IMG/VR virus record: IMGVR_UViG_2579778894_000023
Location: 1 to 21,416 of that record
DNA length: 21,416 bases
DNA from: a virus
Lineage: Duplodnaviria > Heunggongvirae > Uroviricota > Caudoviricetes
Strand: one strand, 5' to 3'
In this document: one piece after another, positions 7,641-17,727 of the stretch
Layout of the letters: every line of letters starts with the position of its first letter
How positions within the stretch are numbered: the first letter of the stretch is position 1
Notes under the pieces: generated by a model
Database searches by the model: none
Told to the model about the DNA's origin: nothing
The model's input: only the letters and a program-made list of their open reading frames with translations
Program-made: the position numbers and the translations under genes

Positions 7641-8048
7641 AATTATCTCCATTTTTACAAATGAATTTTGTCGATGCGGTGCCTGGTGCCTCCAGGTGAC
7701 GTTAACCAGTTAACAATTAACGCCGGATAATCCACCCATAACACTGATGCTTTTAACTGTGCCGCGTGCGCTTAGCCGCATTCACCGCATCACAAAATTC
7801 ACTTTAAAAAGGGGCGGCAGGGCAGCCACGGAGTAGAACTGATGCCGCCAAAGACTACACATAGCAATGTCGTTATTTACAACCGGAGGCGCACTCCCAC
7901 CATTTAAATTTAACAGACAAGACCGACTCTTTATGGATACCGGAAATGCGCCTTCGTGTTGTGCCCGGTTTTATTTCACCACCTCCGGGCTTTGGTGGCC
8001 TCGGCTATACCCCTACAGCAAGAATATTGAATTAATCCAATAAATGGT

Positions 8049-9266: not shown

Positions 9267-9685
9267 AAATCAGGCATGAGCACATCGAATCAGTGTTGTT
9301 AGCCCTGGCAGCCGAAAAAGGGCAGGCGTGGGTCGCTAACGCAATTACTGAAGAATATCTGCGCCAGGGGGGCGGCGAATTGCCCCTTGTACCAGGCAAG
9401 GACTGGAACAATCAGCAGAATATCTATCACCGTTGGTTGAAAGGTGAAACGAAAGCGCAAAGGGAAAAAATTCAGAAACTGATCCCTGCGGTTCTGGCAA
9501 TTCTTCCGCGCGAGCTGCGTCACCGACTCTGCATCTTCGATACCCTGGAACGCCGTGCATTACTGGCGGCGCAGGAAGCGTTGAGTACGGCAATTGATGC
9601 GCATGATGATGCAGTCCAGGCCGTTTACCGGAAAGCACATTTCAGCGGTGGTGGGTCGCCCGGCGATTCTGTCGTAGTGCATTGA
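9263..9685 (+). CDS. ydaT: YdaT-family protein (CII-position regulator / putative toxin domain)
   Basis: 140 aa; MKIRHEHIESVLLALAAEKGQAWVANAITEEYLRQGGGELPLVPGKDW... closely matches recalled Rac YdaT; translationally coupled to ydaS. Confidence 0.8.
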   Translation: MKIRHEHIESVLLALAAEKGQAWVANAITEEYLRQGGGELPLVPGKDWNNQQNIYHRWLKGETKAQREKIQKLIPAVLAILPRELRHRLCIFDTLERRALLAAQEALSTAIDAHDDAVQAVYRKAHFSGGGSPGDSVVVH

Positions 9686-9730
9686 TTGAAATTAATCGTG
9701 CCGGATTGTTTTGTTCGGTATCAGTTAAAT

Positions 9731-10172
9731 GTAACGCTGCGAGCGTTACAAGGTGAAAACAAATGGCTTCAAACTGGATAAAGCTCGAGGTTATTACGCC
9801 GGATAAGCCGGAAATATTCAGGCTTGCTGAGATTCTGAATATTGATCCAGATGCCGCATTAGGGAAGGTTATTCGCTTCTGGGCATGGGCGGATCAACAA
9901 ATGATAGACGGTAATGCAGATTGTAACGCTCGCGGCGTTACAAAAAGTGCAATAGACCGCATCACTTTTATGGCTGGTTTTGCTGATGCGTTAATTCAGG
10001 TTGGATGGCTGGTCGAAAATGACGGTGGGCTTTCTCTACCTAACTTTGAACGTCATAACGGAAAAAGCTCTAAAAAACGGGCGGTTACAAACGAGCGAGT
10101 TACAAAAATACGCGAACTGAAACGAAAAGGTAACGCTGGCAGCGTTACACAAACGGATCAAAAAGCGTTACC
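9731..10172. repeat. Array of GTAACGC/GCGTTAC palindromes and half-sites (candidate replication-origin iterons or initiator operator sites)
   Basis: gtaacgct-gcg-agcgttac 9731-9749; gtaacgc-tcgcg-gcgttac 9923-9941; gtaacgct-ggc-agcgttac 10130-10148; half-sites gttacaaa at ~10084 and ~10099, gcgttacc ~10165. Confidence 0.6.
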
Positions 10173-10551
10173 AGAGGAAGAGGAAGAGGAAGATATAAAT
10201 ACTGATCTCCCCCTAAATCCCCCTCGCCAAAAACGAGCGTCTAAAAAATTCGAGCCGGAGGCTATTGAGCTGCCCGATTGGTTGCCGGAAACACTCTGGC
10301 ATGAGTGGGTCCGGTTCAGACAGGCATTGCGAAAACCGATTCGAACGGAGCAGGGCGCTAACGGGGCGATACGGGAACTGGAAAAATTCCGTCAGCAGGG
10401 TTTTACACCTGAGCAGGTGATTCGACACAGCATCGCCAATGAATACCAGGGCTTGTTCGCACCGAAAGGTGTTCGGCCTGAGACGTTGCTCCGACAGGTT
10501 AACACCGTCTCGTTGCCGGATAGTGCGATCCCGCCAGGCTTCAGGGGGTAA
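9763..10551 (+). CDS. ydaU: Phage replication initiation protein (YdaU-like, O-protein analog)
   Basis: 262 aa; position immediately upstream of the DnaC-like loader; acidic linker EEEEEED; SD AAGGTGA; palindrome array lies within/around the gene as with lambda O/ori. Confidence 0.8.
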   Translation: MASNWIKLEVITPDKPEIFRLAEILNIDPDAALGKVIRFWAWADQQMIDGNADCNARGVTKSAIDRITFMAGFADALIQVGWLVENDGGLSLPNFERHNGKSSKKRAVTNERVTKIRELKRKGNAGSVTQTDQKALPEEEEEEDINTDLPLNPPRQKRASKKFEPEAIELPDWLPETLWHEWVRFRQALRKPIRTEQGANGAIRELEKFRQQGFTPEQVIRHSIANEYQGLFAPKGVRPETLLRQVNTVSLPDSAIPPGFRG

Positions 10552-10557
10552 CAGACC

Positions 10558-11304
10558 ATGAAAAATATTGCGACAGGCGGCGTTCTGGAGCGTATCCGCA
10601 GACTGACCCCACCACATGTAACCGCCCCATTCAGAACGGTAGCGGAGTGGCGCGAGTGGCAACTTGCTGAAGGCCAGAAACGTAGCGAGGAGATCAACCG
10701 CCTGAATCGCCAGTTGCGGGTGGAAAAAATTCTGAATCGCTCAGGCATCCAGCCGTTGCACCGTAAATGCTCGTTTGCGAATTACCAGGTGCAGAACGAC
10801 GGCCAGCGATACGCGTTAAGCCAGGCGAAATCCATCGCCGATGAACTGATGACCGGGTGTACAAATTTTGCGTTCAGCGGAAAACCTGGTACCGGGAAGA
10901 ATCACTTAGCGGCAGCTATCGGGAATCGCCTGCTGAAAGACGGTCAGACAGTGATTGTGGTTACCGTGGCTGATGTTATGAGCGCCCTGCACGCCAGCTA
11001 TGACGACGGGCAGTCAGGCGAAAAATTTTTGCGGGAACTGTGCGAAGTGGATCTGCTGGTTCTTGATGAAATTGGCATTCAGCGCGAGACGAAAAACGAG
11101 CAGGTGGTACTGCACCAGATTGTTGATCGCCGGACAGCGTCGATGCGCAGCGTGGGGATGCTGACAAACCTGAACTATGAGGCCATGAAAACATTGCTCG
11201 GCGAGCGGATTATGGATCGCATGACCATGAACGGCGGGCGATGGGTGAATTTTAACTGGGAGAGCTGGCGTCCGAATGTTGGTCATCCAGGAATTGAGAA
11301 GTAA
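10558..11304 (+). CDS. ydaV: DnaC-like helicase loader, AAA+ ATPase (YdaV-like)
   Basis: 248 aa; Walker [14 protein letters not shown], Walker B LLVLDEIG; characteristic DnaC/IstB layout. Confidence 0.9.
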
Positions 11305-14961: not shown

Positions 14962-15184
14962 GAAGGAAACAAAACAGAAACAACAATTGCCGTTATCTGT
15001 TGTTACCATGGCAAGTAAACGTATCTCAGGCGAGCGCATTGCGCCGTTCTGACGCAGATAAATTAGCCTGGATAGATGGTGCTGGCAATAAAAAATAGCG
15101 TTTTCTTATCGGTGTCGGTAAGATTGCTGCGGGTGCTTGAGGCTGTCTGCCTCGGGCATGCCACTGTAAGGCAGACAGAGAAAA

Positions 15185-15285
15185 GCCCCAGTTAACATTA
15201 CGCGTCCTGCAAGACGCTTAACATTAATCTGAGGCCATATCTATGCGACACATAGAGATTAGCCTCTTACGGACCGAAAGGTCAA
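15185..15285 (-). ncRNA. Candidate sok-like antisense RNA and its promoter (approximate)
   Basis: Minus strand reads TTGACC (15285-15280), 18-bp spacer, TAATCT (15261-15256); predicted start ~15249 would make an RNA complementary to the mok-like start region. 3' end not defined. Confidence 0.25.
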
Positions 15286-15302
15286 GGAGAAGCAGGCTAT
15301 GA
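15243..15302 (+). CDS. Candidate mok-like leader ORF (19 codons) coupled to hok
   Basis: ATG 15243 lies inside the hairpin ctatg-cgaca-catag; ORF MRHIEISLLRTERSRRSRL ends in TGA overlapping the hok ATG (cTATGAag). Confidence 0.3.
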   Translation: MRHIEISLLRTERSRRSRL

Positions 15303-17454: not shown

Positions 17455-17479
17455 CTCAATCTGTTATCCGGGGCTATAT
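17450..17479 (+). promoter_or_regulatory. Late promoter PR'-like
   Basis: TTGACT (17450-55), 18-bp spacer, TATATT (17474-79), overlapping the end of the Q gene. Confidence 0.55.
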
Positions 17480-17540
17480 TCCTCACGCGCCAGCAAAATC
17501 TGGCGTCGGGATTAGGAACCCCGGATAGAGACCGCGACAG

Positions 17541-17566
17541 ACACACGCCGCGAGCGTGTTTTTTAT
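17541..17566 (+). terminator. tR'-like terminator of the short late leader RNA
   Basis: acacgc-cgcga-gcgtgt followed by tttttt, ~80 nt after the predicted PR' start. Confidence 0.65.
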
Positions 17567-17727
17567 TGTCGTATGCACGCGCACATCTGAATTATGGTGG
17601 GGCGTATGGGGGAGCTGAAAAGCTCGCCGGTTGGTTTCCCGGTAGTTCCTAACCCTGTACGTCTCACCACCCGATGATTAGGAACCTGACGGTGGTGATG
17701 GTTTAGAAACCACCAGAGGGCGTCATT

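Follow-up and report, generated by a model that had tools for sequence, protein, structure and literature searches.

Where on its genome does a Rac-like prophage initiate its own replication? The question is raised by a stretch of 21,416 nucleotides (nt), IMG/VR record IMGVR_UViG_2579778894_000023, called here the window, which means the whole of this stretch. The window is a Rac-like prophage of Escherichia coli that adjoins yebY and displays the gene order int, xis, ralR, recT, recE, kilR, repressor, cro-like gene, ydaT, initiator and ydaV, then late and lysis genes. The gene of its replication initiator (9763–10551, + strand, 262 codons) is preceded and penetrated by an array of palindromes and half-sites that ends at a polypurine tract. 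It is a textbook principle that a replication origin can lie inside the initiator gene. Comparison with homologous genes indicates that the region 9731–10209 is probably the replication origin of this Rac-like prophage, placed inside its initiator gene as in lambda, and that the palindromes are almost certainly binding sites of the prophage's own initiator.

Three perfect 19-base-pair (bp) palindromes, GTAACGC-N5-GCGTTAC, are found in the window, as the original prediction had claimed. They are P1 (GTAACGC-TGCGA-GCGTTAC, 9731–9749), P2 (GTAACGC-TCGCG-GCGTTAC, 9923–9941) and P3 (GTAACGC-TGGCA-GCGTTAC, 10130–10148). Allowing up to two mismatches, the 21.4 kb hold three matches, a number not attained by any shuffle, for an expectation of 0.04. 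The count of the heptamer GCGTTAC, which the prediction had proposed as a check of enrichment, leads to the same result, with 11 occurrences in the window for 2.1 expected and 7 of the 11 within 9731–10171. P1 is non-coding and lies in the spacer between ydaT and the initiator gene, adjoining a Shine-Dalgarno-like AAGGTGA. Its predicted place upstream of the start stands, except that it ends 13 nt and not 14 before the ATG (9763). P2, the distal site, and P3, the proximal or core site, are both inside the 5′ half of the open reading frame, also as predicted, where they are read in the same frame and both encode N-A-x-x-V-T.

At least three additional half-sites sharing the GCGTTAC core had been announced. 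Only one exact copy exists beyond the palindromes, a right-arm half-site on the + strand (10165–10171) whose distance from the right arm of P3 is 23 nt (two turns of the helix) and which adjoins the polypurine tract. The others are degenerate: a left arm GTAATGC (9911–9917) 12 nt upstream of P2, two right arms (GCGGTTAC at 10081–10088 and GAGTTAC at 10097–10103) and a putative left arm GAAACGA (10119–10125) 11 nt upstream of P3, at a position where homologs carry exact GTAACGC direct repeats. No strand is assigned to the palindromes and to these degenerate arms. GTAATGC is part of a 12-nt insertion (four codons, D-C-N-A) that the clade of the window, unlike all other homologs, carries just 5′ of the distal palindrome (9909–9922). 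This insertion moves the distal site from +148 to +160 and looks as if part of the left arm had been duplicated (GGTAATGCAGAT beside TGTAACGC).

The protein encoded by this gene matches PHROG 2509, 'replication initiation protein', at 1.2e-89. It comprises an N-terminal 'MAGDWIK-family' domain (residues 1 to ~120), a disordered charged linker (~121–150) and a C-terminal domain (150–262) that resembles the C-terminal domain of DnaT, which binds single-stranded DNA (ssDNA; PDB 2ru8, E 3.5e-5). Directly downstream, ydaV (10558–11304, + strand) encodes a DnaC-like helicase loader (PRK12377, 1.5e-153; DnaC, 2.6e-91) that is 95% identical to YdaV of E. coli K-12 and is the predicted partner of the C-terminal domain of the initiator. 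The PHROG assignment, the DnaT-like domain and the adjacent DnaC-like loader are the reasons why the gene is read as that of a replication initiator. The N-terminal domain is the predicted DNA-binding domain, which would recognize the palindromes. Its AlphaFold2 model, of moderate confidence (predicted local distance difference test, pLDDT, 69.6), displays a helix-helix-helix-helix-hairpin order that is compatible with a winged helix. A sequence search with this domain against solved structures found no relative, and a Pfam search of the initiator found no family at E≤0.01. Profile alignment by hhalign gave a probability of 0.1% with DUF1376 and of 0.2% with the N-terminal part of lambda O, and there was no match to Pfam Phage_rep_O. 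The family, designated here as the 'MAGDWIK' initiators (PHROG 2509, 9474 and 3926), is large, with 6689 representatives of clusters at 50% identity retrieved at E≤1e-3 and 4234 at E≤1e-10. Some relatives from Shigella flexneri and E. coli (loci L010 and L011; proteins P0007, P0021 and P0063) have the same N-terminal domain and palindromes and a C-terminal part that is truncated or different (210 residues) or fused with DUF1627, which suggests recombinant or decayed initiators.

Homologs of the N-terminal domain were drawn from cultured phages, from one genome per bacterial species and from IMG/VR. Nearly all those with at least 44% identity in this domain share the palindrome, with one copy at nt +148 and another at +346 to +384; the arms have at most two mismatches and the N5 spacer is free to vary. 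Their hosts include E. coli, Enterobacter, Pseudomonas, Xanthomonas, Ralstonia, Achromobacter, Akkermansia and other Verrucomicrobiota, Stieleria and other Planctomycetota, and a metagenome-assembled genome (MAG) of Acidobacteriota. The number of 19-bp GT...AC palindromes with a common arm is exactly two in 134 of 201 unique 5′ ends of genes. Both intragenic sites are near-universal, whereas P1 is restricted to the E. coli/Shigella Rac-like clade.

What is conserved at these sites was addressed in 56 unique genes with a G+C content ranging from 0.36 to 0.67. The glycine codon at the site is GGT in all 56 (19% elsewhere in the same genes), the asparagine codon is AAC in all 56 (69% elsewhere) and the valine codon is GTT in 53 (31% elsewhere). 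Furthermore, two frames are found for the proximal site, one encoding N-A-x-x-V-T and the other V-T-x-x-A-L; the third, in which it would contain a TAA codon, is never used. In 58 unique close relatives, the arms, including those of the non-coding P1, show singleton variants only, while the spacers, again including that of P1, are polymorphic at 10 of their 15 positions. Since synonymous codons are fixed, two frames are used, P1 is non-coding and constant arms flank variable spacers, selection appears to act on the DNA and not on the protein. P2 encodes a loop (C-N-A-R-G-V-T) of low pLDDT between helices 2 and 3 of the N-terminal domain and P3 falls in the disordered linker; on the model, these seem to be the parts of the protein that would best tolerate a sequence imposed by the DNA.

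The sites are also arranged in a conserved manner. In diverse homologs, the core includes, in this order, one to three left-arm half-sites, the palindrome, a cognate right-arm half-site a few nt further on, directly adjoining C[C/T]AGAGAAGAGAAGAGAAGAGAAGA, and A+T-rich DNA. Distances from the half-site next to the GA tract were compiled from 155 unique cores. Half-sites of the same orientation are found at 11 nt (71 cases), 12 nt (6), 23 nt (36), 34/35 nt (5) and 45/46 nt (3), and those of opposite orientation at 25 nt (90), 36/37 nt (105) and 47–49 nt (8). The half-sites are therefore aligned along one side of the double helix and repeat every ~11.5 bp. No consistent helical phasing is seen in the spacing of distal and proximal palindromes, which ranges over 189–312 bp. 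In the 5′ part of the gene, the half-site hexamer has a density of 10.1 per kb, versus 0.63 per kb in the flanks. The corresponding core of the window (10081–10209) comprises the degenerate half-sites, P3, the exact half-site at 10165–10171, AGAGGAAGAGGAAGAGGAAGA and TATAAATACTGATC. Altogether, the window combines homology in the N-terminal domain with the arrangement typical of the 'MAGDWIK' family, that is, two same-arm palindromes, a cognate half-site and a GA tract.

The GA tract was not part of the original prediction. In the window, this polypurine sequence (AGAGGAAGAGGAAGAGGAAGA, 10173–10193, + strand) is 21 nt long, lies directly 3′ of the last half-site, encodes the EEEEEED linker and is the longest homopurine run of the whole stretch. 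It is followed by TATAAATACT, within a short A+T-rich segment (TATAAATACTGATC, 10194–10209, no strand assigned) that includes a GATC and where homology to the Rac prophage of K-12 picks up. The tract (AGAGAAGAGAAG...) is the same in all specificity classes of homologs, and its nucleotides are kept across phages of Planctomycetota, Verrucomicrobiota and Proteobacteria. More than 120 viral contigs contain the exact 25-mer CAGAGAAGAGAAGAGAAGAGAAGAT. All the matches inspected (85 of 120) are in or at a gene of the 'MAGDWIK...' family, a few of them being fragments at contig ends, and in the intact genes inspected the 25-mer typically lies ~375–605 nt from the called start and is preceded by a half-site array. 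Since homologs translate the tract in each of the three frames (PEKRREEK, REEKRRED or QRREEKRR), DNA is the level that is conserved, and because any frame of a GA repeat gives a linker rich in E, K and R, such an element is tolerable inside a coding sequence. Among near-identical E. coli prophages (L078–L157), the length of the tract varies by 6-nt (GAGGAA) insertions or deletions, as expected from repeat slippage, and the central base of the P3 spacer often flips between G and C (TGGCA or TGCCA).

More diverged lineages use other arms, and within each genome one arm is shared by both palindromes and by the half-site next to the GA tract, so that in each lineage this half-site and the palindrome arms change together. 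The arms are GTCACGC/GCGTGAC in Caballeronia, Rhodanobacteraceae and some viral contigs, GTTGCGC/GCGCAAC in a Planctomycetales MAG and a viral contig, TGTCACC-N7-GGTGACA in Fimbriiglobus, GTAGACG in several viral contigs and GTCCGC[AT]-N5-[AT]GCGGAC, at +65 and +344/353, in Epsilon15-like phages; GTCACC is also named among the arms, and others occur. The change from A to C in the arm turns the encoded asparagine into histidine (GGT AAC GC to GGT CAC GC), and the protein residue therefore follows the DNA site. Two IMG/VR members (L168 and L196) carry four GTCCGAC direct repeats with an 11–12-nt pitch before the GA tract, and no palindrome is evident in the 60 nt that precede this tract; their lineage is closer to plasmid iterons than other members are. 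A search for specificity residues from the consensus sequences of the classes was uninformative, arm class and phylogeny being confounded.

Comparison with the Rac prophage of K-12 provides a further argument. The initiator gene had been named ydaU, a name that fits only its C-terminal half: residues 139–262 are 81% identical to K-12 YdaU, whereas residues 1–138 are unrelated to it and do not belong to DUF1376, which K-12 YdaU matches at 2.7e-26. The gene is a mosaic. At the DNA level, homology to K-12 ends right after the ydaT stop codon (~9686) and resumes at ~10188 in AAGATnTAAAnACnGATC-CCCCCTAAATCCCCC. The swapped cassette (9686–10190) holds P1, the entire N-terminal domain, all the palindromes and half-sites and the purine tract. 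Lambdoid phages classically have the origin and the N-terminal domain of the initiator in one specificity module, while the C-terminal domain travels with the helicase loader. The exchange of sites and N-terminal domain as a single cassette relative to K-12 therefore points to such a module, with the C-terminal domain remaining with the loader. The mosaic boundaries against K-12 and the co-variation of the arms with the lineage of the N-terminal domain are both those of an exchangeable module, as would be expected from a lambda-type origin. Of 5426 complete E. coli genomes, 689 have the cassette of the window, O157:H7 strains being among them.

K-12 Rac belongs to the same prophage type as the window, with the same gene order and integration neighbourhood, and is reported to contain a functional, active origin, oriJ (PMC3945230). 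No map position of oriJ was found in the searchable papers, the subscription literature being outside reach. K-12 ydaU encodes a DUF1376 N-terminal domain and is devoid of GTAACGC palindromes. In the middle of this gene (L002, NC_000913.3 1418000–1424000, 3472–3590), direct and inverted repeats of the ATGTTCAAAC type, with spacings of 33, 33 and 12 nt, are followed by a purine-rich tract. The K-12 Rac prophage therefore resembles the window in having mid-gene repeats followed by a purine-rich tract, whereas its N-terminal domain and its ATGTTCAAAC repeats differ. This cluster sits at the place equivalent to the array of the window and ends at the common AAGATnTAAAnACnGATC-CCCCCTAAATCCCCC; it may well form the core of oriJ.

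The closest parallel is ori-lambda, which maps within O and in which near-perfect inverted repeats of a 19-bp sequence bind O dimers, next to an A+T-rich region that opens and is strongly strand-asymmetric in purines (PMC5043065). In the lambda record, four 18-bp dyad iterons lie at nt 349–433 of O and are followed by CACAAAAGACACTATTACAAAAGAAAAAAGAAAAGATTA; in gene coordinates, the array of the window spans nt 319–409 and the GA tract nt 411–431, which are nearly the same positions. As in lambda, as well as in P22, phi80 and 82, the putative origin lies in the part of the gene encoding the linker that joins an origin-specific N-terminal domain to a loader-engaging C-terminal domain. Likewise, dyad sites of ~19 bp inside the initiator's own coding region are followed by a strand-asymmetric, purine-rich tract and an adjacent A+T-rich region, the gene belongs to the early rightward operon, and N-terminal domain and sites form one exchangeable cassette. 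Unlike lambda, the family of the window has a fixed GA repeat of the (AGAGA)n type across specificity classes, and the window encodes a DnaT-like C-terminal domain and a DnaC-like loader instead of P. The lambda-type reading, that of an initiator gene carrying its own origin, had been the core of the original prediction. It gains strong support from these comparisons because the sites are conserved as DNA, co-vary with the lineage, are phased beside the GA tract and are swapped together with the N-terminal domain.

From this comparative evidence, we infer that the N-terminal domain is the binder, that unwinding takes place at the GA/AT tract and that the region fires as an origin. Dimers of N-terminal domains would bind P2 and P3, and also the clade-specific P1, and further subunits would fill the flanking half-sites along one face of the helix, at a pitch of 11–12 bp. 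This nucleoprotein complex would destabilize the adjoining GA tract and A+T-rich segment (10173–10209). The DnaT-like domain and the DnaC-like YdaV would then bring in the host DnaB. Early rightward transcription of the cro-like gene, ydaT, the initiator gene and ydaV would cross the origin, as in lambda.

Several points weigh against this interpretation. No binding, unwinding or replication assay on any member of the initiator family was found in the searchable papers. K-12 Rac is described as replication-defective after excision (bioRxiv 10.64898/2026.09.06.749655), although it carries the K-12 cassette and not that of the window. The core of the window is somewhat degenerate compared with those of homologs, its upstream half-sites being imperfect and differently oriented. 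The A+T-rich segment is short, shorter than that of lambda, with a minimum G+C of ~0.375 over 40 nt, and the GA tract itself is not notably A+T-rich, so that its unwinding role would be one of analogy. The DnaA box TTWTNCACA has two matches in the window, both distant (4769 and 18324), and a scan for the consensus of integration host factor (IHF) found none near 9731–10209; neither kind of site therefore accompanies the putative unwinding region. With regard to layout, lambda has four tandem iterons whereas the family has one palindrome with phased half-sites and a second, conserved palindrome ~200–290 bp upstream. In the window, this distal palindrome is ~200 bp from the core and falls outside the lambda paradigm, looping, wrapping or a roadblock being possibilities. 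In addition, the initiator has no sequence similarity to lambda O and is neither an O homolog nor a full homolog of K-12 YdaU. Lastly, plasmid records with this initiator are limited to two circular, phage-like molecules in which it neighbours an ATP-binding loader (L279, Pusillimonas sp. T7-7 NC_015459.1, 41 kb; L280, E. coli CP088505.1, 52 kb). Possibly extrachromosomal prophages or phage-plasmids, these two molecules provide no minimal replicon as evidence.

Could the palindromes be operators instead of parts of an origin? The initiator or another regulator would then repress initiator synthesis, by occlusion of ribosome binding at P1 and by a roadblock or loop at P2 and P3, like the inverted-repeat operators of the Rep proteins of iteron plasmids. 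In such plasmids, autorepression relies on inverted repeats and initiation on direct repeats (PMC5043065), and palindromes and lone half-sites also coexist here. The position of P1, just 5′ of the start codon and against the Shine-Dalgarno-like sequence, is what an operator could occupy. However, P1 is clade-specific while the intragenic sites are not, no sigma-70-like promoter is predicted around it in 9686–9762, and a phased array ending at an invariant polypurine/AT tract would be needless for an operator. Palindromes that act as operators and not as an origin are therefore unlikely. P1 alone may be an accessory initiator site or an autoregulatory operator over the ribosome-binding region, the latter having been raised in the original prediction; that it acts additionally as an operator is plausible, though less likely than not, and better placed than the operator explanation of the whole array. 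The binder could also be a protein unrelated to the initiator, such as the prophage repressor, a Cro-like or YdaT-like regulator or a host factor, given that regulators are encoded directly upstream and that the identity of the binding protein is deduced. Yet the neighbouring genes at homologous loci vary widely (antirepressor, methylase, CII, Rha and others) while the palindromes track the initiator gene and its lineage. Moreover, the repressor/cro intergenic region of the window lacks GCGTTAC, and hosts belonging to several phyla argue against a host-specific factor. A foreign binder is therefore very unlikely.

Two other explanations invoke no duplex-binding protein. According to one of them, the palindromes would act as single-strand hairpins, either stem-loops in the messenger RNA affecting its stability or translation, or signals for primosome assembly or priming in ssDNA. 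Each palindrome indeed folds stably as RNA into a hairpin of 8–10 bp (-10 to -12 kcal/mol, z-scores of -3.2 to -5.1), arm changes between lineages are two-sided and keep the pairing, and the C-terminal domain resembles the ssDNA-binding one of DnaT. Within a lineage, however, the arm sequence and not just its pairing is kept across phyla while the loop is free, and most single-arm variants (GCGTTAG, GTAACGG, CCGTTAC) break a pair without compensation. Unpaired half-sites phased by 11–12 bp beside a palindrome would make sense only for a protein that reads duplex DNA, and an Rfam scan of 9600–10300 found no match. Hairpins are thus about as improbable as a foreign binder. A minus-strand terminator-like match (10148–10130), made of P3 and the downstream CTTTTCGTTT with a weak T run, is probably incidental, since on the coding strand the A-run comes before the palindrome. 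According to the other explanation, the repeats would be a by-product of coding for the N-A-x-x-V-T peptide, or chance, and the shared frame of P2 and P3 in the window would fit the former. The non-coding nature of P1, the use of the other frame by the proximal site of homologs, the fixed synonymous positions and the chance expectation of 0.04 all contradict it, as do the encoded residues, which belong to a low-confidence loop or a disordered linker and follow the changes of the DNA site (for example Asn to His). This explanation is effectively refuted by the data on frames and synonymous sites.

The lambda-type origin thus preferred also shares features with other initiation systems. Like the iteron origins and Rep operators of plasmids such as P1, F, R6K, pPS10 and RK2, whose iterons are phased with the helix, it displays helix-phased half-sites beside an unwinding region (PMC5043065). 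As in plasmid Rep systems, palindromic and single half-sites of one recognition sequence coexist, and in the clade of the window a palindrome lies just 5′ of the initiator gene. Plasmid iterons, however, have a pitch of ~22 bp versus ~11.5 bp in this family, whose sites are inside coding sequence, and neither a Rep_3/WH1-WH2 signature (Pfam) in the initiator nor nearby DnaA boxes were detected. The GA tract, for its part, recalls the DnaA-trio and other bacterial unwinding elements, in which a short-period, strand-asymmetric repeat abuts the last initiator site in a fixed orientation, although the repeat differs in unit and sequence (GA-rich and pentamer-like) and the initiator is not an AAA+ protein. 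By this analogy, the GA tract is a candidate DNA-unwinding or strand-capture element, any role in ssDNA capture being speculation. A stronger proposal is that the tract is a family-wide, specific element for origin opening or strand capture that goes beyond generic melting and is recognized, as duplex or as purine single strand, by a conserved part of the initiator not involved in specificity. This proposal is put forward as a possibility only and is rather doubtful at present.

Elsewhere in the window, Rfam matches above the gathering score (463–607, 2173–2351, 7812–7863 on the minus strand, 15131–15301 and 17474–17674) correspond to SraC/RyeA, SdsR/RyeB, RalA, DicF, sok and isrK with C4. SraC/RyeA and SdsR/RyeB sit at the junction with the host, RalA is an antitoxin small RNA, sok adjoins hokD, and isrK accompanies the C4 antisense RNA and its a1/b1 targets.

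Globally, the analysis gives a precise location for the likely origin of this E. coli prophage cassette. Neither the sites of the family nor its universal GA tract were found described in the searchable papers, subscription literature remaining outside reach, and the family-wide layout of palindromes, phased half-sites and GA tract, which is present in thousands of related phage genes across phyla, seems to be undescribed so far. It provides a sequence rule for putative origins in a large uncharacterised family (~6700 clusters): a GA tract, a half-site before it and two palindromes with the arm of that half-site. The lineages with different arms would constitute a naturally occurring series in which protein and DNA specificities match, usable for studies of specificity change and for orthogonal replicons. 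If the GA tract does have the specific role tentatively proposed above, phages would possess an equivalent of the DnaA-trio principle, at work in thousands of them from several phyla whatever palindrome they use. As a corollary, the origin would set part of the residues of its own initiator, namely the G-N-A..V-T loop and the E/K/R linker. The family offers in any case a clear example of a cis-element that constrains an overlapping protein, with DNA kept in three frames and residues that change with the site.

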